Assembly: GCA_965214705.1 (NCBI GenBank)
Contig: OZ243972.1
Location: 2,592,001-2,656,000 of the forward strand
Direction of reading: 5' to 3'
Origin: Alphaproteobacteria bacterium
GTDB taxonomy: Bacteria > Pseudomonadota > Alphaproteobacteria > UBA828
DNA: 64,000 nt
Position 1 is the stretch's first letter; each line of letters starts with the position of its first letter. Below, piece after piece: positions 21,121-47,001 of this stretch. A program made the position numbers and the translations under genes. The notes below the pieces were generated by a model. That model was not told where the DNA came from, searched no databases, and worked only from the letters and a program-made list of their open reading frames with translations.

Positions 21121-22322
21121 GGAAGGTCTGATCAAGTCGAGTGTGCCATGATTTTCGTAGGAGTCGCAGATTGGATGATCGGGTCATGGCACAGGCGAGC
21201 TTTTCGGAACTGGAGCACGACTTGAAGAAGCGCCGGACGCGGCGCGAGCTGTTCCTGGAGAAGATGGACAAGCTGGTTCCCTGGGAGCGGCTGGAACGGC
21301 GGATCGAGCCGTTCTATCCGAAGGCGGGGCGCGGTCGGCGCCCGTACCCGCTTGCGGTGATGCTGCGCGTTCACTGCGTGCAGCTGTTCTACAACCTGAG
21401 CGATCCGGGGATGGAGGACCTGCTCTACGAGGTGGAGTCGGTGCGGCGTTTCGTGGGGCTGCGGCTGGCGGAGGCGTTGCCTGACGAGACCACCATCCTG
21501 AACTTCCGGCATCTTCTGGAGAAGCACGGCCTGGGCGAGGGTCTGTTCGAGGAGATCAATGCGCACCTGGCGTCGCGCGGCCATTGGCTGCGCACGGGGA
21601 CGATCGTTGACGCGAGCATCATCGAGGCGCCGTCGTCGACGAAGAACCGGCGCCGCGCACGGGACCCTGAGATGCGTCAGACGAGGAAGGGCAAGCAGTG
21701 GTATTTCGGGATGAAGGCGCACATCGGGGTGGACGCCGGGTCGGGTCTGGCACACAGCGTGGTGACGACGGCGGCCAACGCAAGCGACGTGACGCAGGCG
21801 GGAGCGCTGCTGCATGGCGCTGAGACGACGGCGTGGGGCGACGCGGGCTACCAGGGGGTGGAGAAGCGTCCCGAGCACCGGGATGGCGGTGTCGAGTGGC
21901 GTGTGGCGATGAAGCCGGGGCGGCGCCGGCTGCTGGCCGGGGGTGGCGCCGAAGCGGCGGCCGAGACGCGCAAGGCGTCGGTGCGGGCGAAGGTGGAGCA
22001 TCCGTTCCTGTACGTGAAGCGGCACTTCGGCTACGCCAAGGTGCGCTACCGGGGCGTGGCGAAGAACAGGCAGCGCATCGCGTTGCTGCTGGGGTTCTCG
22101 AACCTGCTGATCGCCGGCCGCTACGCGACGCAATGACAGGGGAGCAGTCCGCCCGCCGCCGGCGGGACGACGGGGAATGCGGCGGATCGACGCGGATATC
22201 GCCCGTTCGCTCCGTATCCCGCGACAAAAGCAGCCCCCGGCCTGCCGGCAATATCGTCGAGCTTCAAATCCAAGCCCCCTCTCCCCCTCGAAGCCGCCAA
22301 GATGGGGTTGTTCAGACTTTCC
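21121..22322 (+). mobile_element. IS5-family insertion sequence
   Basis: TIRs GGAAGGTCTGATCAA/TTGTTCAGACTTTCC; TSD ATAG at 21117-21120 and 22323-22326. Confidence 0.95.
21186..22136 (+). CDS. IS5 transposase
   Basis: RTRRELFL, PDETTILNFRHLLE, IVDAS, FGMKAHIGVD, GDAGY, RAKVEHPF. Confidence 0.96.
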   Translation: MAQASFSELEHDLKKRRTRRELFLEKMDKLVPWERLERRIEPFYPKAGRGRRPYPLAVMLRVHCVQLFYNLSDPGMEDLLYEVESVRRFVGLRLAEALPDETTILNFRHLLEKHGLGEGLFEEINAHLASRGHWLRTGTIVDASIIEAPSSTKNRRRARDPEMRQTRKGKQWYFGMKAHIGVDAGSGLAHSVVTTAANASDVTQAGALLHGAETTAWGDAGYQGVEKRPEHRDGGVEWRVAMKPGRRRLLAGGGAEAAAETRKASVRAKVEHPFLYVKRHFGYAKVRYRGVAKNRQRIALLLGFSNLLIAGRYATQ

Positions 22323-22327
22323 ATAGT

Positions 22328-24351
22328 GTGTGCTGGGCAGCGCCCAGATCAGGTGGGTTCAAGTCCCACTGGCGCTCGGGTAAGGGGCGCCATATCCAAA
22401 AGTGGGGGTAATTCCTCACTGGCCGGAGTGAGCCGATAAGCGAAACTCTAAACGGGCACGAAGCCGGAAACGGCGGAGACAGCCAAGGGAGGAGCTAAGT
22501 TGGTCCACTGTCGAAAGACAACCGGAAGGCAGGGTGTCCACCGCGAGGTGGAATCTGAAGGGCTTGCGGAGAAGTACCGGGCCGTAATCGAGGGGGCCAC
22601 CCCATGATGAATCGGTCGGCCAAAGACGGGGCAAGGTCGAGCCGGCACTATGGCGGCGAAGGCGTTCTTACCCACCCGTCGCACCAAGGTGTTTGCGAGC
22701 GGCACGGTACGGAAGATCTGGACGTGACCCCAGGAGGGCTCGCCGCGTTCCCGGGTGGCACCGGGATAACGGACCCTATAAGCCGAAAGGCGAAATGGGA
22801 AAGGATGCGCGGCGAGCAATCGGACAACCGAATAGTACCTGAAGCCCGGCGAAAGCCGGGTGACCGCGCGAGCGGCGGCCGTGTGGGCCGGGGAAGTCGG
22901 TTGGCAGAGGTGGTCGGCGAGAGACAGCGATGAGTGAGTAAGGACCATGACGCGGACAAGTTCCTTGAGCGAAAGACCCGGACATCATGGCCCGAGGAGA
23001 CTCATCGACTGGATCAACCCGGCGGGTGACAGGAAGGTCCACTCACTGGTGGACAAGGTGTACAAGCGGAAGAACCTTGAGGTGGCCTGGGAAAAGGTGA
23101 AGCGCAACCGGGGTGCCGGTGGCGTGGACGGAGAGGATTTAGCGGCGTTCGAGGCATCGCTGGATGCAAATCTCGATCGCCTGCACCGGGAGTTGCGGGA
23201 CGGTGAGTATCACCCGCAGCCGGTTCTCCAATGCCTGATCCCCAAGGCGGGCCAGCCGGGGAAGTTCCGCCCGCTCGGCATCCCGACAATCTACGACCGG
23301 GTGTGCCAGCAGGCGCTGCTGAACCGGCTGGAACCGATCTTCGAGCCGGTGTTCGACGATGCCAACTACGGGTACCGGCAAGGAAGGTCTGCCCATGGAG
23401 CGTTACGCAAGATATGGAGGGAACTGGACGAGGGCAACGAGTGGGTTCTCGATGCGGATTTGAAAGACTTTTTCGGGTCCGTGGACCACGAAAAGCTCCT
23501 CGAACTCGTCAACCAGCGAGTCTCGGATGGCCGGGTATTAGGTCTGCTCAGGCAGATGCTCACGGCCGGGGTGGTGGCCGACGGTAAGAGGCTGCCGACC
23601 GAACAGGGCACTCCGCAGGGCGGCATCGTTTCACCGCTGCTCAGCAATATCTTGCTGACCCCGTTCGATTGGGAAATGCGTCGTCGCGGCTATCGACTAA
23701 CGCGATACGCCGATGATTGGCTGATCACGTGCCGCACACGCGGGGAAGCCCGCGCAGCACTGGAGACGGCCAGGCGGATTCTGGCAAAGCTGGGTGTGTC
23801 CCTCAACGCCGGGAAGACCCGCATTGTCCATGTCAGGCACGGGTTTGAGTTCCTCGGCTACAAGATCAAGCAGGGCGAGCGGCCTCTCCGGCTGTCGTCC
23901 TCCAAGATCAAGAGCGGGGTTCGCGGGGGAGCGCGCTACGCGGTTCCGCGTGAGAAATCCATCCGGCACTTCAAGGACCAGATTCGCCAGCGTACCCGGC
24001 GCAAGGCTCCTGTCAGCACGCAGGAGCTGATTGACGAGATCAACCCGATCATTCGGGGATGGGGCCAATACTATTGCAAGGCCCACGTCCGCGGGCTCTT
24101 CCACCAGCTTGACGGCTGGATCGTGCGGCGGCTCTGGTCGCATCGTCGCAAGCGCTGGCGCAACGCTGGCTGGAAACAGTTGCCGGAGCGCAAGCTGATC
24201 GACGAATACGGGCTTGTTCGCCTGATCTCACTGGTTCCGTCCTTGAACCTTCGTTGAGACACCTTTGTGAAAGCGGCTTACGGGAAAACCGTACGGGCCG
24301 TTTGAGCGGCGGACGGAGGCTAGCCTCGCGGGGCGCCTCCTCCGACCCGAC
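22328..24351 (+). mobile_element. group II intron B (intact), inserted inside intron A
   Basis: 5' GTGTG; EBS1 ACTATG (22647-22652) pairs with upstream CATAGT; DV AAAGCGGCTTACGGGAAAACCGTACGGGCCGTTT; 3' CCCGAC. Removing it restores ATAGT/ACCGATGAAG of intron A. Confidence 0.9.
22947..24257 (+). CDS. ltrA: group II intron reverse transcriptase/maturase, no endonuclease domain
   Basis: HSLVDKVY, GAGGVDG, RPLGIPT, DADLKDFF, GTPQGG, RYADD, FEFLGY, X domain NPIIRGWGQYY. Confidence 0.95.
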   Translation: MTRTSSLSERPGHHGPRRLIDWINPAGDRKVHSLVDKVYKRKNLEVAWEKVKRNRGAGGVDGEDLAAFEASLDANLDRLHRELRDGEYHPQPVLQCLIPKAGQPGKFRPLGIPTIYDRVCQQALLNRLEPIFEPVFDDANYGYRQGRSAHGALRKIWRELDEGNEWVLDADLKDFFGSVDHEKLLELVNQRVSDGRVLGLLRQMLTAGVVADGKRLPTEQGTPQGGIVSPLLSNILLTPFDWEMRRRGYRLTRYADDWLITCRTRGEARAALETARRILAKLGVSLNAGKTRIVHVRHGFEFLGYKIKQGERPLRLSSSKIKSGVRGGARYAVPREKSIRHFKDQIRQRTRRKAPVSTQELIDEINPIIRGWGQYYCKAHVRGLFHQLDGWIVRRLWSHRRKRWRNAGWKQLPERKLIDEYGLVRLISLVPSLNLR

Positions 24352-24850
24352 ACCGATGAAGCGGGCGAACAAGGGGGCGCGAGCCCCTGCGGAACCTGTG
24401 GAGGGAAGGGCCTCGACCAAGGGGAATCCGCGAAGCGAAAGCACGCGCCGGACGCAGGGCCGGGAAAGCGTGACCCAGGCCGCCGAGCGGATACGTCAAG
24501 CTGCAACGAGGAAGCCGCAGGAGAAACTGACGGCGCTCCTGCACCATGTCACACCGGACGCGCTGCGCTGGGCCTTCCACGCGTTGAAGCGGGACGCCGC
24601 GGCGGGGATGGACGGCATGACATGGGCTGAGTACGCGAACGGTGTTGTTTCCCGCTTTAGCCGGATAGCGGGTCGGCGATTTTTCTCACATTGATCGGTT
24701 CAGGGATTTCCCCGGATGGTGGGGGAAAGCGGGAGATCGGCGAGCATCGCGGCTTCGGCGGTTGGCGGTGCCGGGGCGGGACCGTAGTCTCGGGCTGACG
24801 AGGAACAAGAAAGAGGCCCGCGCGGGCTGACTCCCGCCGGGCCATGGCCG

Positions 24851-25486
24851 GTGCAGCTTCGCTACGAAACGGGGCTTACCGGCGAGGAATACGTTAGGGC
24901 CGAGGCGTGGCGCGACGCAAGGCTTGAGCGCTGCCCGAATCACCCGCACGGCGGATGTTCCGTGGGAAGCCACGGCACCTACGGGCGGAAGACCCCGCCC
25001 GGCGCGAGGGTTCCTCGCTGGTATTGCCGCGAGAGCCATACGACGATCAGCCTTCTGGCCGACTGCCTGGCGGCGCGGCTGCCGGGCACGCTCGACGATC
25101 TGGAAGCGGTTGTCGTCGCGGCCGAGGGCGCGAAGAGCCAGGAGGAGGCGGCGAACGAGGTGCGCCGCCCCGAGGACGATGACGCCATCGAGCTTCCCGG
25201 CGCGCTGCGCTGGCTGCGCCGGCGGGTGGATCTCGTCCACGATGTCCTTTCCCGCGTTATCGGCCTGATCCCCGACAAGCTCGCGGGCTGCGCCGCCACC
25301 ATGAGCGCGGTGCGCGACAAGCTCAAAAGCAACCGCGCATTGATGGCGCTGCGCGGCCTGGTCGCCGGGCAGCTGCAGGCGCTGCCCGCGCCGTTGGGCT
25401 TCCAACCCCACGGAACCGGCGCGAGGAGTCGCAAGCCGGGCCTCCAACACTCGATGGGGCCTGATCCGCCCCCGCCAGGCGCCTAG
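24851..25486 (+). CDS. putative Zn-binding transposon accessory protein (DUF6431-like position)
   Basis: CPNHPHGGC...HGTYGRK...RWYC...TISLL; first gene of the element. Confidence 0.65.
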   Translation: MQLRYETGLTGEEYVRAEAWRDARLERCPNHPHGGCSVGSHGTYGRKTPPGARVPRWYCRESHTTISLLADCLAARLPGTLDDLEAVVVAAEGAKSQEEAANEVRRPEDDDAIELPGALRWLRRRVDLVHDVLSRVIGLIPDKLAGCAATMSAVRDKLKSNRALMALRGLVAGQLQALPAPLGFQPHGTGARSRKPGLQHSMGPDPPPPGA

Positions 25487-25530
25487 CGTCATGGTCCCGG
25501 GCCCGAGGGGCCGCGAACGAGGACCGTGAC

Positions 25531-26850
25531 ATGAAGGAATCGGATGACGACCTCCGCCAGGCGATCGCGCTCTTCCGATACGGCGTGATCGCCGATCTGG
25601 TGCATCTGCCGCTGGGCACGAAGGGCGTCGGCGACAGGCTTCGCGAGAAGGCCAGCCAGCCCTATGCCATCCCCGGAACCGACCGGACCCGGGTTGCCGC
25701 CGACACCATGCGGGAGTGGATCAGGCACTACCGCGATGGCGGCTTCGAGGCGCTCTACCCCAAGCCGCGCACCGACCGGGGCAAGCCCCGGCGGCTGCCG
25801 CCCGAGGTCGCCGAGCGCCTGGTCGCGCTGAAGGCCGACAACCCGGCCTGGCCGGTGCGCGCGATCATCCGCGCGGCCGCCGAGGAGGGCATCGATCACC
25901 CGCTCGCGCCCTCGACCGTGCACCGGCTGCTGAGCCGCGAGGGGCTGTTCGACAGGAAGCCGCCGGACGGCGCCGACCGCCGCCGCTTCGCCTTCCGCGA
26001 GGCCGGCGAGCTGTGGATGAGCGACGTCATGCACGGGCCCAAGGTCCGCTTCGGCCGGAGCCGGCGCAAGACCTACCTCATCGCATTCATCGACGACGCC
26101 ACCCGGGTCGTGCCCTTCGCCGCCTTCGCCACGGCCGAGAACGTCCAGGCCTTCCTGCCCGTGTTCAAGAATGCGCTGATCCGCCGCGGGCTGCCGCAGC
26201 GCCTTTATGTCGACAACGGCGCCGCCTACCGCTCCCGCCATCTCGCCCTGATCTGCGCAAGACTGGGCGTCGTGCTGGTGCATGCGAGGCCGTATCAGCC
26301 AGCCGGAAAGGGCAAGATCGAACGCTGGTTCAGAACGCTTCGCGCCGGCTGGCTCGCCCATCTCGATGCGCCGGTCCTGGACAGCCTCCAGACGCTCAAC
26401 CGCAGCCTCTGGGCGTGGATCGAGGGCGAGTATCACGACACCCCGCATCGCGGCCTCGAGGGACGCACGCCGCTGGAGCAGTGGGCGTTGGCCTCGGCCG
26501 CGGTCCGCTACCCCGACGCCACGCTCGACCTCGACGACATCTTCCTCTTCGAGGCCAGGCGGCTGGTCCACAAGGACCGCACCGTCAGCCTCAACGGTCG
26601 CGTCTACGAGGTCGACGCCATCCTGGTCGGGGAAAGGGTCGTGCTGCGCTACGACCCGGAGGCACCGCCCGGCCGGCCGCTCGACGTGGTCTGCGACGGA
26701 AAGCCCGCCGGCCAGGCAACCCGCCTCGACGCCTATGCCAACACCGCGGTGAAGCGCGGCCACTACTCCAAGAAGATCGAGCCCGACGACCCGGCGCCCG
26801 AGCCGCCGCCCTCGCCGCTCAAGATGCGCAAGTTCAAGGAGGACGACTGA
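25531..26850 (+). CDS. DDE transposase/integrase (IS481/Mu-like, rve core plus C-terminal beta-barrel)
   Basis: N-terminal HTHs, WMSD, FIDD, YVDNG, KGKIERWF. Confidence 0.92.
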   Translation: MKESDDDLRQAIALFRYGVIADLVHLPLGTKGVGDRLREKASQPYAIPGTDRTRVAADTMREWIRHYRDGGFEALYPKPRTDRGKPRRLPPEVAERLVALKADNPAWPVRAIIRAAAEEGIDHPLAPSTVHRLLSREGLFDRKPPDGADRRRFAFREAGELWMSDVMHGPKVRFGRSRRKTYLIAFIDDATRVVPFAAFATAENVQAFLPVFKNALIRRGLPQRLYVDNGAAYRSRHLALICARLGVVLVHARPYQPAGKGKIERWFRTLRAGWLAHLDAPVLDSLQTLNRSLWAWIEGEYHDTPHRGLEGRTPLEQWALASAAVRYPDATLDLDDIFLFEARRLVHKDRTVSLNGRVYEVDAILVGERVVLRYDPEAPPGRPLDVVCDGKPAGQATRLDAYANTAVKRGHYSKKIEPDDPAPEPPPSPLKMRKFKEDD

Positions 26851-27650
26851 TGTACCAGCGCCACTTCGCCCTGACCGGCATGCCCTTCGAGACCCCGGCA
26901 CAGACCGACGAGCTGTTCGAATCCTCGGCCCGGCGCGAGGCCGAGGCCAGGCTCGGCCACCTCATCGAGCTCAAGGGCATCGGCCTGCTCACCGGCGAGG
27001 TCGGCGCCGGCAAGACCACCGTCTGCCGCCACCTCACCGACCAGCTCCACCCGGGGCTGTATCGCGTCCATTACGTCTCGCTCACCACCGGCAACGTGCT
27101 CGACACCTACAAGGCCATCGGATGGGAGCTCGGGCTGACCGTCGAGCGATCCCGCTCCTCGGCCCATCACGCGATCAGGACCGAGATCTCCCGCCTCGCC
27201 AAGGAAGCCAGGCAGCTCCCCGTCCTCGTCGTCGACGAGGCCCACCATCTGCGCAACGACGTGTTGGAGGATCTCCGCCTGCTGACCAACTTCGCCATGG
27301 ACTCCGAGAACCGCATGTGCCTCATCCTGGTCGGCCTCACTGAGCTCAGGCGGCGGCTGTCCATGGCGGTGCATGAGTCCCTCAGCCAGCGCCTCGTCGT
27401 GCGGCACCACCTCACCGGCCTCGAACGCGACGAGGTCGACGCCTATCTGACCCACCGCCTCCGGCTCGCCGGATGCGAGCTGCCGCTGTTCGAGGAGGCC
27501 GCCGTCGAGGCCCTGTTCCAGGGCACCCGCGGCCTGCCGCGCCAGATCAACCGCATCGCCCATTACGCGCTGTCGGCCGCCGCCCTCGACAAGGCAAAGA
27601 CCGTCAACGCCAACCACATCCAGACCGCCCTCGACGAGCTTCAGCCATGA
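26850..27650 (+). CDS. ExeA-family AAA+ ATPase (TniB/TnsC-like transposition partner)
   Basis: GEVGAGKTT, VLVVDEAH, LSQR, GLPRQIN; start overlaps the transposase stop. Confidence 0.9.
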   Translation: MYQRHFALTGMPFETPAQTDELFESSARREAEARLGHLIELKGIGLLTGEVGAGKTTVCRHLTDQLHPGLYRVHYVSLTTGNVLDTYKAIGWELGLTVERSRSSAHHAIRTEISRLAKEARQLPVLVVDEAHHLRNDVLEDLRLLTNFAMDSENRMCLILVGLTELRRRLSMAVHESLSQRLVVRHHLTGLERDEVDAYLTHRLRLAGCELPLFEEAAVEALFQGTRGLPRQINRIAHYALSAAALDKAKTVNANHIQTALDELQP

Positions 27651-28714
27651 ACAGCGTCGCCACCGAGGGCATGGCGATGACCGGCTTCCCGACGCGGGCG
27701 CCGATCGAGCTGGAGGACCGGCCGCGCCAGCAGCAGTGGCTCATCGACGGGCTCTGGGGGCGCCAGGCCGTCGGCATCGTCGGCGGCGAGCCGAAGTGCG
27801 GCAAGTCCTTCCTCGCGCTCGACATCGCCGTCGCGGTCGCCGCCGGCGTCCCATGCCTGCGCCGCTTCGCCGCCGACCGGCCGGGCCCGGTCCTGCTGTT
27901 CGCCGCCGAGGACGCCGGGCACATCGTGCGTGCCCGCCTCCAGGGTATCGCGAGCGCCGCCGGCGCCCGCTTCGACGCCCTCGACATCGCGGTCATCGAC
28001 GTGCCCGCGCTGCGCCTCGATCATCGCGCGGACCGTCAGCGCCTGGTGCAAACGGTGGAACGCGTCCGGCCCCGCCTCGTGGTCCTCGACCCCCTGGTCC
28101 GCCTGCACGGCATCGACGAGAACACCGTCGCCGAGGTCGCCCCCATCCTCGGCTTCCTGCGCGACGTCCAGCGCCGCTTCGAGACCGCCGTGCTGCTGGT
28201 CCACCACGCACGAAAGAGCGGCGCCGCCAGGCCGGGCCAGGCCCTGCGCGGAAGCAGCGAGCTGCACGCCTGGGGCGACTCCAATCTGTACCTGCGCCGG
28301 CGAGACAGGCAGATCCTCATGACCGTCGAGCATCGCGCCGCCCCCGGCCTCAACGACATCGAAATCGAGCTCGCCGACGACGGCAAGGGGCCCGCGCTGC
28401 GCCTCCGCCAGGTCGAGACCGGCGATGCCGCGCCGCGGCCCGAAACCCCTGAACGGCGCATCCTCCAGGCCCTCGCCGAAGCCGACGCGCCGCTCTCCCA
28501 GCGCCAGATCCGGGAGCGCGCCGCAACCCGGCACAAGACCGTGGGCGCCATCCTGCGAAAGCTCGTCCGTGAGGGACGCATCCGGCACGACGCCGAGGGA
28601 CATTACAGCCTCGTCACAGGCGAAACCGAGAACGCCGCGCCGGACGACGCCGCCAATGGCAGCCGCCATCCGGACGCCTCGCGGTTCCCGCCTCCCGGTT
28701 CCGCCCATCCCTAG
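27647..28714 (+). CDS. RecA-superfamily (AAA_25, RepA-helicase-like) ATPase with C-terminal winged helix
   Basis: QWLIDGL, GEPKCGKS, AAED, LVVLDP, VHHARK, RGSSEL; C-terminal ILQAL..LSQRQI..LRKLVREGRI..Y; ATGA overlap with the ATPase. Confidence 0.8.
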   Translation: MNSVATEGMAMTGFPTRAPIELEDRPRQQQWLIDGLWGRQAVGIVGGEPKCGKSFLALDIAVAVAAGVPCLRRFAADRPGPVLLFAAEDAGHIVRARLQGIASAAGARFDALDIAVIDVPALRLDHRADRQRLVQTVERVRPRLVVLDPLVRLHGIDENTVAEVAPILGFLRDVQRRFETAVLLVHHARKSGAARPGQALRGSSELHAWGDSNLYLRRRDRQILMTVEHRAAPGLNDIEIELADDGKGPALRLRQVETGDAAPRPETPERRILQALAEADAPLSQRQIRERAATRHKTVGAILRKLVREGRIRHDAEGHYSLVTGETENAAPDDAANGSRHPDASRFPPPGSAHP

Positions 28715-29515
28715 GAGTTCGAGCGGGAACCGCCCGCCGGAACCGCCCCCCAGGCGCCTCTCGGGCTCAAAAAACGACAATGCGTCGAGCGATCGGCCCG
28801 TGGCCGAAAGCTCCGCTTACGGCCATGGATGCACTTCGTCGGATGGACGGCGGCGGGTCACCCGAAGGGCCGTAGCGAAGCGGAGGAGCCGCGCAGCGGC
28901 TTGACGCGCCGACGGCCGTCCGACACCCCGGCACCCTGTCCCCCTTCCGGCAATGACCGATCAGTCCGGGAAATACGCGCGCCCGTCACCCGAAATAACC
29001 CGGGAAATCCGTCGTCAATCAATCCGGGAAACAACAACGGGCTGGAAGAGCGGCTGCTCGACCTGCACCGGCGCGTGCAGTCCGGGGCGTATCGAGCGCC
29101 GCCGGTCCGGCGGGTAGAGATACCCAAGCCGGACGGCGGGACACGACCGCTCGGCGTTGCCGCGCTGGAGGACAAGATCGTCCAGAAGGCGGTGACGGAG
29201 ATCATCCTGACGCCGATCTACGAGCCGGTCTTCCTCGGCTTCAGCTACGGGTTCCGACCGGGGCGCGGGGCGCATGACGCGCTCGACGCGCTCGCTGTCG
29301 CCATCAATCGGCGGAAGGTCAACTGGGTGGTCGACTGCGACATCCAAAGGTTCTTCGATACCGTTTCGCGGGACTGGCTGGTCCGGTTCCTCAAGCACCG
29401 GATCGGGGACCGGCGGGTGATCAGGCTGATCGTCAAGTGGCTGAAAGCCGGCGTCATGGTCGATGGCCGGTGGCAGGACACCTCGCAGGGCACGCCACAA
29501 GGGGCGATCGTTTCG

Positions 29516-29547
29516 CCGCTGTTATCGGAACGTTCCGATAACAGCGG
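29516..29547. repeat. perfect 32-bp palindrome at the RIT left junction
   Basis: CCGCTGTTATCGGAAC-GTTCCGATAACAGCGG. Confidence 0.95.
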
Positions 29548-29642
29548 ATATGGGAACCTTATGATTCTGGGAACCTGAGCCGCTGCGGGCGTTGATTATC
29601 AAGGGATTGGGCACGGCTCAGGTTCCCATAAGATTGGCGGGT

Positions 29643-30635
29643 TCAGGTGCCTGCAAGCATCGCGAGCACCTCGTCCTGCGCACCCTTGAACACGCCCTTC
29701 CGGAGGCTGGGAGGGCGCCATTTGTCGAGCGTATCCAGCTTGTCGGTGGGATCCGCCTGCAGGTACATCTCGGTGGTCTGAACGCTGGAGTGCCCGAGCC
29801 AGAGTGAGACCTTCCTGACGTCGCCTGTCGCCTCGAGAGTGTGGATCGCGCAAGCGTGCCGCAATAGATGGGGAGATACGGTCTTGCCGGCGATCGACGG
29901 CACGCTGCGCGCAGCGGTTTGCGCATGCAGGACAATCCGTTTGGCGAAGCCGCGCCGGGTCATGCCGGTGCCCATGGCATTGAGGAAGAGATGCCGGTCG
30001 GCACTCTTCGGCCGGATAGCGAGCCAGTCGCGCAGGGCACCGCGGGTTTCCTTCCACAGCGGCAGGATGCGTTCCCGCCGGCCCTTGCCGATGACGTGCA
30101 CCTCGTCGAGGGCCGGCATCTTCAGATCGTCGAGCGCGAGCCCGACCAGCTCCGAGACCCGCAGGCCGGCGTTGTAGGTGAGACACAGCATCGCGCGGTC
30201 CCGTGTTCCAGCCACCGTGCCCGGATCCGGCGCGTCGAGCAGAGCCTGCGTTTCCGCCCGGTCGAGAGAGCCGATGAGGGGCACGTCGCCCTTCTTCACC
30301 GGGATCTCACGCACCTGTGCGGCGAGGTCGAGATATCCCGGGTGCCGGAACTCGAGGAAGCGGAAGAAGGCCTTGATGGCCGCGAGCCGGGCATTGCGTG
30401 TACGCACCCCGTTTTCCCGATCCCGTTCGAGATGTTCGAGGAACTCAAGAAGGGTCGCTATGTCGAGATGACCGATCTCGAGCTTGCAGGGCCGAATGCC
30501 GTGCTTATCCGCCACGAAGACGACCAACAACTTGAAGCACAGGGCATAGCTCTCAACGGTATGCCGGCTCGTGCCCCTGTCGCGTGGAAGATATTCCCGG
30601 AGGAACATCGCAAGGGGAGGAGCGAGTTCAGCCAT
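29643..30635 (-). CDS. tyrosine recombinase RitC-type
   Basis: TRNARLAAIKAFF, GLRVSE, GKGRRER, HLLRHA, LGHS, TEMY. Confidence 0.92.
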   Translation of the reverse strand: MAELAPPLAMFLREYLPRDRGTSRHTVESYALCFKLLVVFVADKHGIRPCKLEIGHLDIATLLEFLEHLERDRENGVRTRNARLAAIKAFFRFLEFRHPGYLDLAAQVREIPVKKGDVPLIGSLDRAETQALLDAPDPGTVAGTRDRAMLCLTYNAGLRVSELVGLALDDLKMPALDEVHVIGKGRRERILPLWKETRGALRDWLAIRPKSADRHLFLNAMGTGMTRRGFAKRIVLHAQTAARSVPSIAGKTVSPHLLRHACAIHTLEATGDVRKVSLWLGHSSVQTTEMYLQADPTDKLDTLDKWRPPSLRKGVFKGAQDEVLAMLAGT

Positions 30636-31554
30636 CGTTCTTCCTCCCCTCATGCAGCCGCTCGGTTGCCTGCGATACCTGTCGCAGCAACACAGGCGTC
30701 GCTTCGAGGTACCAGTAGGTGTCGGCGATGTTGGAATGGCCGAGATAGGTCGACAGCGCCAGCATGTGACGGCCGACATCCCGCCGCTCGGCCGAGACCA
30801 TATGTTCGAGCGCGCGAACTGCGAAGCTGTGCCTGAGGTCATGAAGGCGCGGCCCGGGCTCGCCTGGCCCGCCTCGAAGCCCGACCCGCCGTGCCAGCTT
30901 GATGAAGACGGTACAGAGATAGACCGGGTGCATGGGCCGGCCCGTCGAGAGCACGAACAGGTGGTCGTCGGGCCCACCGCGGCGCTTCCTCTCCGCGAGA
31001 TACGTCTCCATGGCCCGATGGACGCTGTCATCCAGCGGGATGAGGCGGCGCTTGCCGAACTTCGCCTTCCTGATCAGCAGGCCATCCACCGTCAGGTCCG
31101 TCAGCAGGAGGCCGGTCGCCTCCGAGCGCCGCAATCCGGTCGCGGCGATCAGCCCCAGGATGTAATGGAACGTCAGGGGCGTGATCGAACCGGCCGGCGG
31201 CAGCTCCAGCGCCGCATCCATGATCAGCCCGATCTCGGTCAATGACAGCAGATGAGGCGATGGCCGCCGTGATACTGCCTTGCCCAGGGCGTCGCGGTCA
31301 GGCACCTCGTGGCGTTCGTCTTCGGCGTGCAGGACGCTGGCAAGATCGCACACGTAGCGCAGCTTGACCTGCGCCTGGCGGGGAGACGGCGTTGTCGATG
31401 CCCAATCGAGGACCGTGCTGCTGCGCACGAAGCTGTCACCATGGGCCTCGGCGTAGGTCGCGTAATCCTGCAGGCACCGCGCCTGTTCCACATAGGCGTG
31501 GCCCAGAGCCCGGCGGAATATAACGTAACGCTCCACATGGTCGGCCAGGGTCAT
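30628..31554 (-). CDS. tyrosine recombinase RitB-type
   Basis: GLRRSE, KFGKRR, HDLRHSFA, LSTYLGH, TYWYL. Confidence 0.92.
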   Translation of the reverse strand: MTLADHVERYVIFRRALGHAYVEQARCLQDYATYAEAHGDSFVRSSTVLDWASTTPSPRQAQVKLRYVCDLASVLHAEDERHEVPDRDALGKAVSRRPSPHLLSLTEIGLIMDAALELPPAGSITPLTFHYILGLIAATGLRRSEATGLLLTDLTVDGLLIRKAKFGKRRLIPLDDSVHRAMETYLAERKRRGGPDDHLFVLSTGRPMHPVYLCTVFIKLARRVGLRGGPGEPGPRLHDLRHSFAVRALEHMVSAERRDVGRHMLALSTYLGHSNIADTYWYLEATPVLLRQVSQATERLHEGRKNDG

Positions 31555-33107
31555 CGTGCTTCTCCCGCGTCCGGCCAGGGCTGGGCCACTTCCCGGAGCA
31601 TTCGGACATCGACCCGCGCATAGATCGCCGTTGTCTGCGTGGACTGATGACGCAGCAGGGTGCCGATGACTTCCAGCGGCGTGTTGTCGCGCAGCAGATT
31701 GGTCGCCGCGGAATGCCGGAAGACATGCCCCGCCGGCAGACCCTCAGCCTTGACGCCGGACCGCTTGATCGCAGCCTGCGCGACCGCCGACACACCACCG
31801 CTGGCCAGGGGCTGATGGAGCGGCGGCATCATGCGCAGGAACACTTTCTCGGTATCCACGACAGGTCGGGCACGGAGGATGTAATCCTTGACCGCGGCGC
31901 CGACGTCCTGCGGCAACGGCAAGACCGCGGCGCGGCGCGATTTGCCGCTGACCCGAACGACGGCCTTGTCCCAGTCGATATCGTTCAGCCGAAGATTGGC
32001 GACATCGCCGGCACGCAGGGCGAGCCGGGCGAGGAGCAACAGGATGGCGCGATCCCGCAGTCCCATGGGCGTCGCCCGGTCGCAGGATGCGATGATGCGT
32101 TCGATGTCGTCCCGCGGCAGATGACGGGGCAATGTCGAGAACCTCTGAAGGGGGACCGTCGGCACCGCAGCGACAAGTCCCGGCCGGCAAAGGCCATCCA
32201 GCACGAGGAAGCGCAGATACAGCCGAAGCGCCGACGTCTCGCGTCGGACAAGATCGCGCGATGCCGTCTCAAGGCGGCACTGCACCGTGTTCCTGATCAG
32301 CGTCGCGCTGTATCGATCGGGATCGTCGCCAAGATGGGGAAGCAGCACCCGCATGGCCTTGTGGTAGCTCTCTATGGTCCTCTCCCCGATGCCGCGATAG
32401 CGCCGCAGCCAGACCAGAAAACGCGCCACATATTGTCCGGGTTCCTCGCGCGCCGGCATCGGGCGCGGCGGGGCGATGCCCGTGCCGATCAGGTAATCGA
32501 TGAACAACCCGATCTTCGATCGGCTGTTGTTGCAACCCGCGAATCTGCCGGTCCTGATGAAGAAGTCCGGATGCGCGCAGGTGCAGTCGTGCGCGAGGAA
32601 GCGGGAGAGGACATCGTCATCGATCTCGGCGAGTGCGACATCGTGCAGGTAGAGCCAGACGATGAAGTGGCGACAGCGCTTCCGGTACGCGGCGATCGAC
32701 TCGGGCACATATCCTTGTGCCACGAGCGTTTGAAGGAATGCCTCCACCACGCGGCCGCCGCTCTCGATCTCCGGAGGTATCCGCACTCGCCCCGTTTCCA
32801 TGAGGAAGCCGAGAAACCGGTGCAGATGCCATCGGGCACGTCCGAGGTTCTTCCGGTATCCGCGCGGACCGGGACAGGCGCAGTCATGGTTCAGGAATCG
32901 ATGCAAGACGCGAATGTCGAGCGTCTCGATCCCCATCCCGTTCGCCGACAACCATGCGATGAGGTGCAGGATCGTTCGGATGCACTTGCCCGTCAGGCTC
33001 GGGGAATATCCCAGGGCCTGCAACCGCGCCTTGTAGGTCGGGACGATGCCCGGATCCGGTCCATCACCCGCCTCGGGCGACGCCGTGTTGGTGATCATGG
33101 AAGACAT
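31551..33107 (-). CDS. tyrosine recombinase RitA-type (long form)
   Basis: LRAGDV, HVFRHS, LRH, TAIYA; duplicated N-terminal FL-x-HDC-x-C module. Confidence 0.92.
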   Translation of the reverse strand: MSSMITNTASPEAGDGPDPGIVPTYKARLQALGYSPSLTGKCIRTILHLIAWLSANGMGIETLDIRVLHRFLNHDCACPGPRGYRKNLGRARWHLHRFLGFLMETGRVRIPPEIESGGRVVEAFLQTLVAQGYVPESIAAYRKRCRHFIVWLYLHDVALAEIDDDVLSRFLAHDCTCAHPDFFIRTGRFAGCNNSRSKIGLFIDYLIGTGIAPPRPMPAREEPGQYVARFLVWLRRYRGIGERTIESYHKAMRVLLPHLGDDPDRYSATLIRNTVQCRLETASRDLVRRETSALRLYLRFLVLDGLCRPGLVAAVPTVPLQRFSTLPRHLPRDDIERIIASCDRATPMGLRDRAILLLLARLALRAGDVANLRLNDIDWDKAVVRVSGKSRRAAVLPLPQDVGAAVKDYILRARPVVDTEKVFLRMMPPLHQPLASGGVSAVAQAAIKRSGVKAEGLPAGHVFRHSAATNLLRDNTPLEVIGTLLRHQSTQTTAIYARVDVRMLREVAQPWPDAGEAR

Positions 33108-33937
33108 GCCGATTCTCCTGTCCAGGGGCAAAACCGGCAGGAGAAAAGCAGATTTTTATGGGAACCTGAGCCGTGCCCAATCCCTTGATAATCAACGCCC
33201 GCAGCGGCTCAGGTTCCCAGAATCATAAGGTTCCCATATCCCATACTGGCGAACGTGTATCTGCACTACGTCCTCGACCTCTGGTTCTATCGCAAGTGGC
33301 GGCCCGAAAGGGCAGAAGGCGACGCCATCATCGTGCGCTACGCCGATGATGTGGTCGTCGGGTTCCAGCACAGGCAGGACGCGGAATGCTTCCTGCATGC
33401 GCTTGGGGAGCGGCTCGGCCAGTTCGATCTGGCCCTGCATCCGGCCAAGACCCGGCTCATCGAGTTCGGCAGGTTCGCGGAGGTGGACCGCCGGGCACGG
33501 GGGCTGGGCCGCCCGGAGACGTTCGACTTTCTGGGCTTCACACACTATTGCCGGAAGACCAGAAGCGGGCGGTTCGGGCTCGGACGCAAGCCCGCTGCAA
33601 AGCGGATGAGCCGCACACTGAAGCGCGTCGCGGAGGTTCTGCGGCGGCGCAGGCACCACGACCTCCACGAGGTCGCCCGGTGGCTGGGGCGGGTCGTCAA
33701 CGGGTGGCTGAACTACTATGCCGTCCCGACGAGTGCCCGCTTCCTGCGACGCTTCACCTACATCCTGAAACGGATATGGCTGAAGGCACTGCGCCGACGG
33801 TCGCAACGGGATCGCTTCAGCTGGCAACGGCTTCAAGCCCTGGTGGACTGATATTGGCCCAAGCCGTGGATCCGCCACCCGTGGCCGGGACAGCGGTTCA
33901 ACGTCAAATACCCGAGGTAGGAGCCGGATGGTTTAAC

Positions 33938-35908
33938 CCGAACTTCCCCAGCAGATATTGAGCTAAGTTGTTGCGGTGGCTTTCCAAACCACCGTTTCGC
34001 GGAGTCGCGTACTGGGTACGCTACAGGCTGACGCCAAGCAGATCGAGCGCCTGGCGCTGTACCGGCGTCGGCTTGGTGACCAGATCGAAGGGCGGTGCTC
34101 CGGCGAGTTTCGGTTGAACGCGGTTCCTGGCGATGGTCGCCAAATCATCGAGGAGCGTGCGGAAGCTGTGCACCGGCATCCCGTCTGGCGTGCGTTTGCC
34201 GGCGGCCTTGCGACGGGCGGAGGGCGAGGGCTTTGCCGGTGAGACGATGGAAGCGCGCGCGGCGTCCGCAGCGGCCGGGTCGTCCTCGTCGAACAGGATG
34301 GGGGCGAGCCTTTGGCGCATGTGCCATTCGACGTGGTAGGCGAGCATGCACAGCAGCACGTGGGCGCGCACGCGCTCGGGGCGGTAGTGGTGGATGGGCC
34401 GCACCTTGAGGTCGACGGTCTTGACGCTGCGGAAGGCGCGCTCGATGCGGCTCAATCCCTTGTAGGCGCGCACCGTGTCCTCGGCTCCGAGCTCGCCCTC
34501 GGGCACGCTGGTGCGGATGACGTAGAGGCCATCGAGCGCCGCCTCCTCGGCGATCCGCTCCCGGTTGCGCTGCCAGGTGAAGCCGTCATCGGCGATCTCC
34601 AGCTCGAAGTGCTTGGCGACCTTGTGCTTGCCGATGACCTTGCCCACGCGCAGGCCGATCTTGTCCTTGCCGGCGAGGCGGCGCTTGGCGCGCCGTGTTG
34701 CCGCTCGGATCTCGTCGAGGTCGCCCTCGGTGGCCTGGAGCAGGGCCTCGCGCTTGCGCGCCCTCTCGACGGCGAGCAGCGGGTTGCGGCAGGCGATCAG
34801 GCGTTCGCCGGGGAAGTCGGGATGATGGATCTCGGCCAGGTCGCGTTCGTCGAAGAGCGAGGGCTGCAGCGTTCCGCTGGAGGCCAGCTCCCGGATCGCC
34901 GGCGCCCGCAGCGCGCTGATCCACTCCAACCCGGCCGGCTTCACCTCCTCGCGGATGCGCGCCTCGGTGAGCATGCCGCGATCGCCCACCAGCACCACCC
35001 GCGAGAGGCCGAAGCGCCGGCGCAGCTTGTCGATCTGGGAGCCCAGGGTGGCCGGATCGGCGGTGTTGCCCTCGAACACCTCCACCGCCACCGGGCAGCC
35101 CTGCGCGTTGCACAGGAGCCCGAACACGATCTGCAGCTTGCCGCGCTTGCCGTCGCGGGAGTAGCCGTGATGCGCCAGCGGGCAGCAGCGCCCCTCCAGC
35201 CATGTCGAGGTGACGTCGTAGAGTACCAGAGCGCCGTCCTCGAGGTGACGCTCGGCCAGACGCCGTTCGATCCTGCCCTGGCGCTCAAGCAGCCAGTCCA
35301 TCGCCTGGTAGAGTTCGTCTTCGTCGACCTCGCCCAGGTCGAGGGCCTCGCCGAGGCCGCAGCTCAGGGTGTCGCCGCTGAGCCCGCGTGCGGTGGCGAG
35401 CTTCGAGCGCGGCGCCACGATGCGGGCGACGATCATCGCCGCCGCGAGGTCGCGCAGCCGCGAGCGCCTGGCCGCGATCAGCCGTTCCAGACCGAGGCCG
35501 CGCAGAGCCCCGAGCACCGCTGCGACATGGCCGAAGGGACGCGAGCGGGTGATGTCGAAGCCGTCGTCCTCGCGGCGCTTCTCGCCGCGGGGCACAGCGG
35601 TTCCGCCGCGCAAGAGGATGCGCAGGCCCTCGACCAGGTGCGGGGGCCACCTGGAGAGGTTGGCGAGGGTGCGCTTTCTGATTTTTCCGCCTTCGCGCCA
35701 TGATTCGCGCAGGAGGATTGCGGGGGGTGAGTTCCGGTTTGGGACGCTTTCGATATACATGGGGACGGATCATAGTGCCTGACCCGCAAAATATCAACGC
35801 CCCATCCTCATTTACATGGGTACACTTTGCATCCGCACCAACGGCCGATACGTCCGCAAAAACAAAGACTTATGCCCGAAAATCAGCGAAATTCTGGGGG
35901 AAGTTCGG
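33938..35908 (-). mobile_element. IS1634-family insertion sequence in domain V of intron A
   Basis: TIRs CCGAACTTCCCC/GGGGAAGTTCGG; 6-bp TSD TTTAAC (33932-33937, 35909-35914). Confidence 0.93.
34021..35760 (-). CDS. IS1634 transposase
   Basis: LLRESWREGGK..RTLANLS, LYDVTS, GYSRD, VGDRGM, YKGLSRIERAFR, RPIHH. Confidence 0.94.
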   Translation of the reverse strand: MYIESVPNRNSPPAILLRESWREGGKIRKRTLANLSRWPPHLVEGLRILLRGGTAVPRGEKRREDDGFDITRSRPFGHVAAVLGALRGLGLERLIAARRSRLRDLAAAMIVARIVAPRSKLATARGLSGDTLSCGLGEALDLGEVDEDELYQAMDWLLERQGRIERRLAERHLEDGALVLYDVTSTWLEGRCCPLAHHGYSRDGKRGKLQIVFGLLCNAQGCPVAVEVFEGNTADPATLGSQIDKLRRRFGLSRVVLVGDRGMLTEARIREEVKPAGLEWISALRAPAIRELASSGTLQPSLFDERDLAEIHHPDFPGERLIACRNPLLAVERARKREALLQATEGDLDEIRAATRRAKRRLAGKDKIGLRVGKVIGKHKVAKHFELEIADDGFTWQRNRERIAEEAALDGLYVIRTSVPEGELGAEDTVRAYKGLSRIERAFRSVKTVDLKVRPIHHYRPERVRAHVLLCMLAYHVEWHMRQRLAPILFDEDDPAAADAARASIVSPAKPSPSARRKAAGKRTPDGMPVHSFRTLLDDLATIARNRVQPKLAGAPPFDLVTKPTPVQRQALDLLGVSL

Positions 35909-35970
35909 TTTAACGACCACGTCCGGATCTGTGCGGGGGGCGCCGGAAAACCGGCGTCCCTACCGCGACC

Positions 35971-43195: not shown

Positions 43196-43804
43196 GGCTT
43201 CGTCTCCCTTTCGGTTGAAATCTGCCTCGCCTCCGTTGGCGCGGCTCTCCGCGCCATTTTTATTCAAACACCGCAAGTGCGGAGATACTGGTGCTGTTCA
43301 ACATATCCTCCGGAGCGGGACACTCCGAAGGCACACCATACGTAGGATTATTACAGGTATACATGCGCCAGACCTTCTTTCGCGAGTCGCTGAATGTTAG
43401 ATCGTGCCCTTCGGATGTTCTCCAGGAGATATCTTTCCGCTTCCGCTGTTCGTCCTTCCTTTAGAGCCAAAACGACGCGCTGGTGCTCTGCTTTCGTCGC
43501 ACTGAATCTGCGTTTATCATCGAAGTCAATACGACGAATTATATGAATGCGTTCATTGACATGCTGCAGATAGCTGAGAAGGGCATGATTGCCTGACAAT
43601 TTCGCAATAGTTAGGTGAAATTTCTCGTCGCTAATCAATGCTTGCTCGGGATCACCGTTTTCCGGAAACTCATCCCAAACCTCGTGAAGGCGCTCCAGCT
43701 TGTCCGGTGACAGCGATTGAGCAAGCGTAACAATCGCTAGCCCCTCAAGCGCCTCCCGGATGTCCCATAGCTCGTCCATCTCTCGTAAGAGGGGCAAATC
43801 CTGG

Positions 43805-44475
43805 GAGCGCCAGGCTAACTCTGTCGTGGATAGCCGGTGAAAGTCCGGTGAAGGGAAGGACTAACGAACCACCCTTGCCTTGAGCCGTGCGTCGGCCTTC
43901 GCGAGGAGGCAGGCGAAGCGTCGGTAGAGGTGCGCGTGGGCAGGACATTGAGCACCGAAAATGCCGTCATTCGGAGTGCCGAGGCCATCCAGAAGGTCGA
44001 AGGCAACACCGGCCGCCCGCTTTCGTGAGGGCCGGCAGGGCTCCGCGGTGTCCAAGACCCCAGGCACGCGCGTACGTCCACACAGGGGACCTGGGAGGCC
44101 TCTTCATCACCCGTGCCTCAGAGTGCGGGTCGTGACGGGAAGGGTGGATGCCCATAGCCGTCGATGTACGATGGGGAGGAATCTGACTCGGTCGTAGTAC
44201 CGTTGAAACGGGGGAACAAAGGGGCGTGACAACCTTGGCGGACTTCGTGGAGGAAAGGACCGGGGCCAACGGGAGATCGGGGACCTGAAGCATGTGCCGG
44301 GCACAGAACCGGGTAAGCATGTCACAGGAGGGTCTCCGAACACGCCGCCGTGCGAGACGTCGCAAGAGCGACGAGAGTGCGCCGGACGTCTGACCGGAGG
44401 CAGGAGCCGGATGCCTTAGCGGGCACGTCCGGATCTGCGCGGGGGGCGCTGGGTAACCAGCGTCCCTACCGCGAA
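43805..44475 (+). ncRNA. ORF-less group II intron C (about 670 nt, DI-DVI)
   Basis: 5' GAGCG; DI homologous to intron A; DIII GTACCGTTGAA..GGAGGAAAGG; DV GAGCCGGATGCCTTAGCGGGCACGTCCGGATCT; DVI ending CCCTACCGCGAA. Confidence 0.85.
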
Positions 44476-44522
44476 GATGAAGCGGCGTGATTCCGGCTTT
44501 GAGGTCCGGTTTGGGCAGGACC

Positions 44523-46190
44523 TCAGATGGCCTGCGGAGCGAGCACTGGACCAGCGGTCGGTCGCTGGCGCGCGAGGTCGGGGAGCCAGGGGACACTTTC
44601 GGCACCTGGGATGCCCAGGCGGTCACCGAGGTAGTTCCAGAATGAGATGCCGTGGCGGGCACAGGTCTTCATGTGGGTGAGGAAGGCGTCGCGGCAGGCA
44701 CGGCCTTTATCCGAGCGGGTTCCGCCCGAGACCTTGCGGCGGACGACACAGACGCGAAGGTCGTTCTCGGTACCGTTGGTGTGGGCCGGCACGTCGGGAC
44801 GGTCGAGCACGGCGAGCAGCTTGTCGCGGTTGGCTAGGGTGCGCCCGATCTGCTCGTCGAGCAGGCGGTAGCCGGTGCCGGTCCGGAAGGTGCGCGCGAA
44901 GCTGCGCTCGACGACGGCGCGTCTGCGCGGACTTGGCTGGCGGCAATAGGCGCCAAGCAGCCGGTACGTCCGCCAGATGCCGCCGCGCACCTCATCGACG
45001 GCCGCACGGCTGGCGTCGCTCCAGACCGGCAACGTGCGATAGAGCCTCTCGGCATGGATCCAGCACAGGAACTGGTGCAGGCCGAGGTCGAACTGGCCGG
45101 CGTCGTCGCTCAGGATGGCGCTGTCCTCGCGCAGCAGGCCATGGGCGAACAGACAGCCGAGCCGGGCGCCCTCGGTGGCGAGGAGCCGGGCCCTGGGGGC
45201 GTCGATCCCGAGCCCGTCGAGGAACGCCATCCACAGGTCAGGCCCGTCAAACCGACCACCGGCATGCCCCCTCAACGCGTCAAGCGCCCGACGCGGCATG
45301 CTGTGGCTCTCCATGTGCCGGAACGCTTCATCGTTCAGCACGTACTCGTCGAGGGCGCCGCACATCGTGTCGAGGAAGCTCAGCCGGCTCTTCGACCCCG
45401 TCGTTCCGAACCAGCCGAAGCAATCGTTGCCGATCGAGATGCAATAGCCGTTGCGCCCTTGATGGCGCGCGCCAGTGTCGTCGACCGAGATCCAGGCCGC
45501 CCCTTCAAGACCCGCCTTCAGTATCTCCGCCGCCTCGCCGACGAACGGTTCCCTGTTCCCGGTCAGCAGGCGCCGCACCTGACGCTCCGAGATGTCGAGG
45601 CCGATCCCATCGAGCAGGGCAGTGATGCGCGGGATCGTGCTCTGGCCCTGGTGGTAGAGCATCAGCACGAAGCGATGCAGCTCAAGGTTGAAGCCGCCGA
45701 TCACGCCGTCGGGCAGCTCAGCGACGATGATGCGCCCATCCGGCGTCACCACGCGCTCGCGCTGAAAGACGACGTTGTGGACTTCGAGTTCCAGCAGTTG
45801 GGCGTGATAGTCCTGGTAATCTTTGTGGACCGAGCCCTCGGGCGCGTCCTCTACGCAGACGACCACGCGCTTCGCGTCCTTGCGGCCCTGCTTGGGGCCT
45901 CGCCGCTTCTTCGAGGCGCCCGAAGAGCGCCGGCCTCCCTCCAGGCCCTTGCCGCCCGAGCCCTTGCCGTCTCCGTCGCCCGCGCCCGGTTTGATATCCG
46001 GCTTGCCGGGCAACCTCTTGAGTTGGCGGATCTCGGCCTTGAGCATCTCGATTGTCTCGGTGTGCACTGCGACCGTCTCCTTGAGACGCTCGTTCTCGGC
46101 ACGCAACTCAAGGATCGTTTCCGCCTGCGCGGCGTTCGTCGCCCGCAGTTCCTCGATCAACCGAGCTTGGGTTTGAAGCGAATCGACCAT
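44523..46190 (-). CDS. IS66-like transposase
   Basis: Coiled-coil N-terminus, SVDDTG, SDDAGQF, CWIHAER, HTNGTENDLR, RKVSGGTRS. Confidence 0.9.
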   Translation of the reverse strand: MVDSLQTQARLIEELRATNAAQAETILELRAENERLKETVAVHTETIEMLKAEIRQLKRLPGKPDIKPGAGDGDGKGSGGKGLEGGRRSSGASKKRRGPKQGRKDAKRVVVCVEDAPEGSVHKDYQDYHAQLLELEVHNVVFQRERVVTPDGRIIVAELPDGVIGGFNLELHRFVLMLYHQGQSTIPRITALLDGIGLDISERQVRRLLTGNREPFVGEAAEILKAGLEGAAWISVDDTGARHQGRNGYCISIGNDCFGWFGTTGSKSRLSFLDTMCGALDEYVLNDEAFRHMESHSMPRRALDALRGHAGGRFDGPDLWMAFLDGLGIDAPRARLLATEGARLGCLFAHGLLREDSAILSDDAGQFDLGLHQFLCWIHAERLYRTLPVWSDASRAAVDEVRGGIWRTYRLLGAYCRQPSPRRRAVVERSFARTFRTGTGYRLLDEQIGRTLANRDKLLAVLDRPDVPAHTNGTENDLRVCVVRRKVSGGTRSDKGRACRDAFLTHMKTCARHGISFWNYLGDRLGIPGAESVPWLPDLARQRPTAGPVLAPQAI

Positions 46191-46437
46191 GGACCCTCCG
46201 CGCGCAGGCTGTCCGTAAAGCGCGCGAAGTCCAGCGAAAAATGCGCGCTCAACCCCCTGATCCGGATCGGCAACGCGGTCGCGTCACATGGCCGGGCCCA
46301 TGGCCGCTGCACCCGGAACTGGAAGCGCGATGGCCAGGAAACGCCGAAGGTGGCCCGATGCCTATCACCAAGGACTACCGTCAGCGCCGGGCGTAACAGG
46401 GACCCCCAAGCGACATCACACCAGCTGCGCGCGCTCA

Positions 46438-46726
46438 CCAGGTCCCCTGTGTGGACGTACGCGCGTGCCTGGGGTCTCGGACACCGCGGAGCCCCGCCGC
46501 CCTCACGAAAACGGGCGGCCGGTGTTGCCTTCGACCTTCTGGATGGCCTCGGCACTCCGAATGACGGCATTTTCGGTGCTCGATGTCCTGCCCACGCGCA
46601 CCTCTACCGACGCTTCGCCTGCCTCCTCGCGAAGGCCGACGCACGGCTCAAGGCAAGGATGGGGCGTCAGTCCTTCCCTTCACCGGACTTTCACCGGCTG
46701 TCCACGACAAAGTTAGGCTGGCGCTC
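46438..46726 (-). repeat. 5' (domain I) fragment of intron C, inverted
   Basis: About 12 differences (manual count) against 43805-44094; same EBS1 loop. Confidence 0.9.
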
Positions 46727-47001
46727 CCAGGATTTGCCCCTCTTACCATCTCTCGAAGATCGAATTTTCGGACGCAGTAGCCTCGACCATCCCTTGCTAC
46801 CAGGCCAGCATGTTCGAGTTTCTGCAGTGCCTCGCGCACGGGCGTGCGACTCACTGACAGGAGCTGGGCGAGACCAGTTTCAGTAAGCCGTTCACCGGGC
46901 TTCAGCTCAAATCTTAGAATACGGTCTCGAAGCAGATACGCCATTGCGTCGCTTCGTCTTCGGTGCCGCGGCGTTGCTACATTCACTGCTGTATCCCGAA
47001 A

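Follow-up and report, generated by a model that had tools for sequence, protein, structure and literature searches.

An ORF-less group II intron and its truncated relic at the ends of a distant IS66-family relative in an alphaproteobacterial genome

We analysed a window of 64,000 nucleotides from the genome of an alphaproteobacterium (assembly GCA_965214705.1, here G000; contig OZ243972.1, positions 2,592,001 to 2,656,000 of the forward strand), in which an insertion sequence (IS) with group II intron sequence at both ends interrupts a GntR-family regulator gene. The element is 2962 bp long (43785-46746) and lies in a GntR/FCD gene encoded on the minus strand. Its tips (43785-43804, plus strand, at the transposase-distal end; 46727-46746, minus strand, at the transposase-proximal end) are perfect 20-bp inverted copies of each other, and it is bounded by an 8-bp target-site duplication (TSD), CATCTCTC, at 43777-43784 and again at 46747-46754. 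The C-terminal FCD part of the regulator gene occupies 43351-43784 (Pfam FCD, 1.5e-21) and its N-terminal winged-helix part 46747-46944 (Pfam GntR HTH, 8.6e-15; the start codon is our own reading), and in silico removal of the IS and one TSD copy leaves a single frame open across the junction. Reading inward from the left tip, the element consists of a complete 671-nt group II intron without an open reading frame (ORF) of its own (43805-44475, plus strand), the native IS body (44476-46425, minus strand), a 12-nt junction filler in place of about 30 bp of native IS sequence (46426-46437), and a 3'-truncated relic of the intron (nt 1-289; 46438-46726, minus strand), which lies on the transposase-proximal side and is 96% identical to the full intron. 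The 1962 bp between the two intron sequences hold one ORF, a 555-aa transposase gene on the minus strand (44523-46190).

The intron-derived sequences give the element inverted repeats of about 310 bp at 96% identity, made up of a 248-nt arm (43785-44032/46499-46746, 96%) and, after a 1-nt offset, a second arm of 65 nt (44030-44094/46438-46502, 95%). This anatomy had been described in a first-pass annotation made from the letters of the DNA, and all of its coordinates proved correct. A weak sigma-70-like promoter match (9/12) lies just outside the left terminal inverted repeat (TIR), at 43707-43734 on the plus strand, in the sense direction into the intron; the promoter and terminator scan of 43700-46850 that returned it found no terminator and nothing useful for the transposase gene.

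Both intron sequences are recognisable as ribozymes of one Rfam type. The group-II-D1D4-6 model (RF02005; gathering score 49) matched the intron at 168.1 bits over its full length (model positions 1-225; 43840-44060, plus strand) and the relic at 155.4 bits, again over the full model (46472-46691, minus strand). Putative domains V and VI lie at 44402-44475 and include an AGC triad and, 7 nt short of the 3' end, a bulged A. Folding of the 3' 80 nt of the intron (-49.3 kcal/mol, z -5.1) gives a bulged hairpin like that of domain V and a domain VI in which UA bulges out 7 nt from the end. The limits of the intron are set, to within a 2-nt GA ambiguity, by an intron-less IS end elsewhere in the genome (G000:C1:1503884). 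Its longest plus-strand ORF encodes 82 aa, and domain IV contains no reverse transcriptase (RT) or maturase ORF. When the intron is set against an RT-encoding intron family of the same genome, 47 nt occupy the place of an ORF of about 1.3 kb, and the last 83 nt (nt 588-670) match the 3' end of that family at 92% identity, from the family's stop codon onward. Because of this replacement and this 3' match, the intron is an ORF-deletion derivative, which would depend on an RT supplied in trans. The relic has diverged from the current intron by 4%, and its Rfam alignment contains extra non-canonical pairs, as would be expected of a decaying remnant.

The five copies of the IS in this genome differ in what their ends carry. 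With the copy in the window taken as the reference (copy 1), copy 2 (C1:421541-424505) is 98.8% identical over the whole element and has the same architecture, with a full intron at the distal end and a 289-nt relic at the proximal end, between TSDs of CAACTACT. Copy 3 (G000:C1:1501614-1503904), whose body is 100% identical to that of copy 1, has the relic at its proximal end as in copy 1 and a TSD of GATTGCAA, but at its distal end the TIR is joined directly to the IS body, at the exact base where copy 1 has the intron. In copy 4 (C1:1859825-1863187), the body of which is 95% identical, the distal end is intron-less and the proximal end carries two complete introns, abutting head to tail after a TIR ending in TTCTGG and followed by intact native sequence. 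Its flanks, CTTTAACG and GCTCCAAG, show no matching repeat, which points to recombination of one copy with another or to a rearrangement next to it. Copy 5 (C1:4122988-4124596; 98.6% identical over the part present) is also intron-less distally and is cut off at 4124596, with the proximal end missing and the TSD not assessable. The transposase-distal end is thus intron-less in three of the five copies (3, 4 and 5) and occupied in two. A further copy of the intron lies outside this IS (C3:1789188-1789858), where it interrupts, in sense orientation and at a look-alike site, an IS91/Y2 transposase gene recognised by Zn_Tnp_IS91 upstream (4.6e-29) and Y2_Tnp downstream (3.6e-51).

All five full-length copies of the intron are 100% identical. 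Copies 1 and 2 of the IS differ at 35 positions, of which none falls in the 671 nt of the intron, 27 fall in the 1962-bp body, seven in the 289-nt relic and one in the left TIR; at the rate of the body about nine differences would be expected in the intron (Poisson P ~1e-4). The same sequence recurs in the 95% IS variant and its head-to-tail tandem and in the IS91-type gene. Because identical introns are found in diverged ISs, in an unrelated transposase gene and in tandem, and because copy 3 lacks the intron, the data fit repeated, recent site-specific insertion of a full intron that moves independently of the IS, and not inheritance with it.

As for the relic, copies 1, 2 and 3 agree in the point at which its nt 289 meets the 12-nt filler, and the roughly 30 bp of native sequence that the filler replaces are present in copy 4 and in relatives of the IS. 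Since one breakpoint is common to three copies with three different TSDs, the relic does travel with the IS. Two transpositions at the least, and perhaps a third, have taken place while the IS carried these 289 nt of foreign sequence 20 bp inside the transposase-proximal end.

A motif search of the genome for the intron's target returned 22 sites. Nine are at IS ends, three with the full intron, three with the relic and three empty; 12 are in IS91-type transposase genes, one with the full intron, none with the relic and 11 empty; and the single remaining site is empty. The exon-binding site EBS1 had been assigned to CCAGAA (43989-43994, plus strand), and the Rfam structure line does place this sequence in a hairpin loop of domain I. 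EBS1 pairs at all six positions with TTCTGG, the TIR variant found in copy 4, in the relative G004 and in most other relatives, and at five of six positions with TCCTGG, TCTTGG and ATCTGG at the other occupied sites (four distinct occupied sites in all). The +1 base is G at every occupied site and the first base of the intron is also G, so that the intron's own first base could replace the +1 G, which accounts for the tandem in copy 4. All motif sites have GGCA in common, which may be the intron-binding site IBS2; the best candidate for its partner EBS2 is UGCC, in a 13-nt internal loop 5' of the EBS1 hairpin.

The DNA target of the intron spans TIR positions ~8-20 and the next base, with TYCTGG as IBS1, and at the distal end of copy 1 the 20-bp TIR doubles as the 5' exon (IBS1 and the putative IBS2). 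As the TIRs are inverted, each IS offers two intron sites, on opposite strands and each read from the tip inward. The earlier suggestion that the TIR itself is the homing site is borne out both by this pairing and by the comparison of empty and filled sites. Full-intron sites lie on the plus strand of the contigs in four of four cases, compared with four of 14 empty sites. This may reflect a replication-strand bias of the kind typical of endonuclease-less introns; we make no claim of such a bias for the full intron, as the cumulative GC skew is too weak and too irregular to place origins and termini.

We propose, with a probability of roughly 85%, that the intron homed into the ends of the IS, with the TIR as its landing site, in two invasions of different age. 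The transposase-proximal end would have been invaded first, and a deletion would then have taken the 3' 382 nt of that intron and about 30 bp of the IS. Transposition would have continued with the 289-nt relic in place and given rise to copies 1-3. Much later, the present-day intron would have retrohomed separately into the distal ends of copies 1 and 2, into the proximal end of the 95% variant (twice, head to tail) and into the IS91-type transposase gene, with an RT supplied in trans by an RT-encoding intron of the genome. The inverted repeat of about 310 bp would then be a by-product of two invasions rather than the designed end of a hybrid transposon. The anatomy, the empty sites, the order of events, the independent movement of the intron and the co-transposition of the relic can be read directly from the compared copies; passage of the intron through an RNA intermediate is what these DNA patterns suggest.

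Several observations weigh against this proposal. Splicing and an RNA intermediate are predicted from DNA, none of the sequencing runs listed being recorded as RNA. Although the Rfam models bear out domain I, the match of Intron_gpII (RF00029) to domains V and VI reaches only 32.8 bits, below its gathering score of 40. The intron starts with GAGCG and not with the consensus GUGYG, and relatives in two other assemblies (G017 and G047) start with GTGCG; the five identical copies argue that the variant start is tolerated. In domains I-III, even the nearest RT-encoding introns of the genome reach only ~70% identity to this one. Three IS ends and 11 IS91-type sites with good matches are still empty, so homing must be of low efficiency, biased to one strand or very recent. 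It is conceivable that copy 1 arose by transposition of a copy in which the intron was already present, and gene conversion between IS copies could be another route to identical introns.

The first-pass annotation had taken the element for a true hybrid in which the whole unit (TIR, full intron, IS body, fragment, TIR) transposes and an RT-less ribozyme is spread mainly by DNA transposition, an account that we consider quite unlikely. Copy 2 has the same intron-bearing ends as copy 1 with a different TSD, and the truncated fragment demonstrably moves with the IS, so that transposition does tolerate 289 nt inserted 20 bp from the tip. To that extent the idea of joint transposition stands, for the fragment. 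It is not borne out for the complete intron, which is absent from most distal ends, including that of copy 3 with its body identical to copy 1, which has no differences between copies 1 and 2 where the body has 27, and which recurs unchanged in the 95% variant, in tandem and in the IS91-type gene. The relatives of the IS in other assemblies are, moreover, all intron-free, and spread of the complete RT-less intron by DNA transposition is not supported.

Homologous recombination or gene conversion over flanking IS sequence might instead have passed the full intron from one IS copy to another. The 95-100% identity of the IS copies would support conversion, and identical introns in diverged ISs fit conversion and homing equally well, but the IS91-type insertion shares only ~15 bp with the IS end, a head-to-tail tandem is described as a product of reverse splicing (PMC4615759), and copy 2 retains, 3 bp away from where the intron is inserted, a C>T change of its own, which means that the flank was not co-converted there; we regard this route as very unlikely. 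The chance that the inverted fragment and the long inverted repeat are a misjoin is negligible, even though the genome looks like a metagenome-type assembly with an estimated contamination of 8.7% and repeats are error-prone: the same structure recurs at three loci with distinct flanks and TSDs, and short-read contigs from other runs span the junction of fragment and IS body as well as the passage from fragment through TIR into flank.

Intron-free forms of the IS, for which the first-pass annotation had proposed a search, are present in G004 and two other assemblies. We searched 60 relatives for the IS body and scanned genome contigs with protein guidance, which gave eight loci. Among the 60 relatives a high-identity body is found only in G004 (87% nucleotide identity, 2073 bp), where the IS is intron-free and flanked by a TSD of TGGCCATG. 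The six nearest protein-guided loci, at 72-87% amino-acid identity, come from three assemblies including G004 (five loci from the two others), and the TIR runs directly into IS sequence at every IS end present; Rfam gave no gathering-level match in the seven relative loci scanned. An RT-encoding intron with a domain I 82% identical to that of the ORF-less intron is present nine times in G004.

Four of the intron-free loci (L051, L052, L054 and L055; 83-87% amino-acid identity) are on contigs of an assembly labelled Dehalococcoidia, the other nearest relatives being alphaproteobacterial, which could reflect horizontal transfer or mis-binned contigs. At positions 2232-2262 of L050, and at the equivalent place in L051 and L052, the bases that follow the TIR look similar to the intron's initial ~15 nt (G-GCGCC-AGGCT). 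We considered an older intron stub at this place and judged the resemblance to be probably a coincidence, as the alignment of IS variants shows a variable native region there.

Public contigs from four runs of four studies, all short and in one case perhaps from the source sample, were also compared with the region. Three of the four runs hold the intron-less joint 43804>44476, and one (X5) holds the empty gntR site, in a contig that joins 43775 to 46746 with 2970 bases skipped. Two public contigs (records 14 and 23) also cross the junction of relic and IS body, the shorter side measuring 27-30 letters, and a third (record 24) starts in the relic, passes the TIR and reaches the flank.

Apart from its intron sequences, the base element behaves like an ordinary 2.07-kb single-ORF IS that is a distant relative of IS66. 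Members of the IS66 family have TIRs that start with GTAA and an 8-bp target duplication, and canonical members carry accessory tnpA and tnpB genes; a single-ORF subgroup (ISBst12-like) is the one that we take the base element to resemble. Its TIR is ~22 bp long, with the consensus GTAAG-A/T-GGGGCAAAT-Y-CTGGGG, and the 8-bp TSDs (n = 6, three in this genome and three in other assemblies) and GTAAG termini match these family features. The transposase matches Pfam DDE_Tnp_IS66 at 41.5 bits (cut-off 23.1; 1.4e-10), over model positions 147-281 of 284. The element thus has in common with single-ORF IS66 members the GTAAG start of the TIR, the length of the TSD and the DDE_Tnp_IS66 match. It differs from the family in that the match is weak and confined to the C-terminal half of the model, in its NCBIfam IS66 score of 81.5 bits, below the cut-off of 180, and in the lack of tnpA and tnpB, neither of which was found in the 1962-bp body; the IS66 label given earlier holds only loosely. 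The native extent of the body is seen in copies 2-5 and in the match to the G004 relative. Transposases that are 40-42% identical occur on 231 plasmid records, mostly rhizobial, and a homologue on pRmeGR4b of Sinorhizobium meliloti GR4 belongs to a 2239-bp element with a clearly related 23-bp TIR; a near-identity DNA search of the plasmid collection found no match.

The RT of the intron would have to be supplied in trans by a resident RT-encoding intron. Of these there are many: the genome contains 43 GIIM maturase-domain matches and 27 RF02005 matches above the gathering score, including the eight full introns and relics described above. As to class D, none of the ten long resident RT frames tested contains the strict form of the C-terminal motif given in PMC4615759.

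In several of the RF02005-type introns a second intron has entered between domains I and II, and the RTs of these interrupted introns are ~430 aa long (one 437-aa frame; otherwise from the position of YADD in longer stop-to-stop frames). In 10 of 11 RF02005-type loci examined, inserted sequence interrupts the alignment with the ORF-less intron, and in most of them it follows domain I and encodes an RT of ~439 aa (for example C3:1609560-1615300, C1:791350-795580, C3:92300-96350, C2:398500-402560 and C3:26400-30450 of G000), and a 439-aa frame with an equally scoring GIIM match occurs at 13 places in the genome. These loci form a repeated twintron pattern. The window contains a further case, an RF02005-type intron starting at ~20724 (window ~20724-35968; G000:C1:2612724-2627968) in which an intron with the 439-aa RT is nested after domain I; the matching domain V/VI follows only at ~35910-35968, with ~11 kb of further ORFs inside, and the whole looks like a heavily nested intron.

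The first-pass annotation had not recognised this architecture from described families, but a precedent exists. As reported for RmInt2 of S. meliloti GR4, all copies of that intron lie in the inverted repeats of ISRm17, at two sites per IS on opposite strands (PMC4615759; PMC5894124), head-to-tail double insertions arise, and a 4-bp EBS2/IBS2 pairing suffices (PMC4615759). RmInt2, which homes into both the left and the right inverted repeat of ISRm17, is a direct precedent for the present case, with which it has in common a target within the IS inverted repeat, head-to-tail double insertions and relaxed target pairing (PMC4615759). The two are also of the same ribozyme type by Rfam, RF02005 matching an RT-bearing intron on pRmeGR4b at 145 bits. 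They differ in that RmInt2 is described as encoding its own 419-aa RT whereas the intron here has no ORF, in their IBS sequences, and in the truncated relic that is present here at one end and has been taken by the IS to at least three sites. Literature searches for an IS66-specific or hybrid description found nothing closer than RmInt2 and ISRm17.

Other known systems resemble parts of the case. The TeI3 introns of Thermosynechococcus elongatus, as described, are naturally ORF-less through deletion of the domain IV ORF, are mobilised in trans by 'driver' RTs of related introns and proliferate in a twintron-rich genome (PMC2882425); the driver RTs were tested experimentally there, and IS-end targeting is not part of the description drawn on here, whereas the helper in the present genome is a predicted one. 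Group II introns such as those discussed here are reported to tend to decay through loss of the 3' terminus (PMC4181065), and in comparison with group II intron 5' fragments that persist as relics, the relic here lies inside a still-active IS and has been copied with it. IStrons, which combine a group I intron with an IS, also have a ribozyme riding on a DNA transposon, but the IStron ribozyme is described as splicing the whole element from the host transcript (PMC4227781). In the element in the window, a single IS end contains both splice sites, and the intron is encoded on the other strand from gntR and the transposase gene. With its 3' splice site internal to the IS and its orientation antisense to gntR, the intron cannot remove the IS by splicing.

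A more far-reaching possibility is that the relic-bearing IS is a stable chimeric transposon, on which the full intron can ride to replicons and hosts beyond the reach of retrohoming, and that the 290-310-bp inverted repeats have come to regulate transposition, for instance by forming a long stem in read-through RNA or by changing the expression of the transposase. We consider this unlikely.

The case combines known behaviours and does not overturn current understanding. It preserves three natural stages in the association of an intron with an IS (empty, relic-bearing and freshly invaded), and the inverted repeat of the IS serves at the same time as the landing site of the intron, as it does for RmInt2 in ISRm17. 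The genome appears to harbour a naturally ORF-less intron that proliferates in trans among a crowd of RT-encoding and nested introns. The IS, for its part, has remained mobile with a foreign stretch of 289 nt only 20 bp away from one tip, which limits how much contiguous terminal sequence its transposase can need there.

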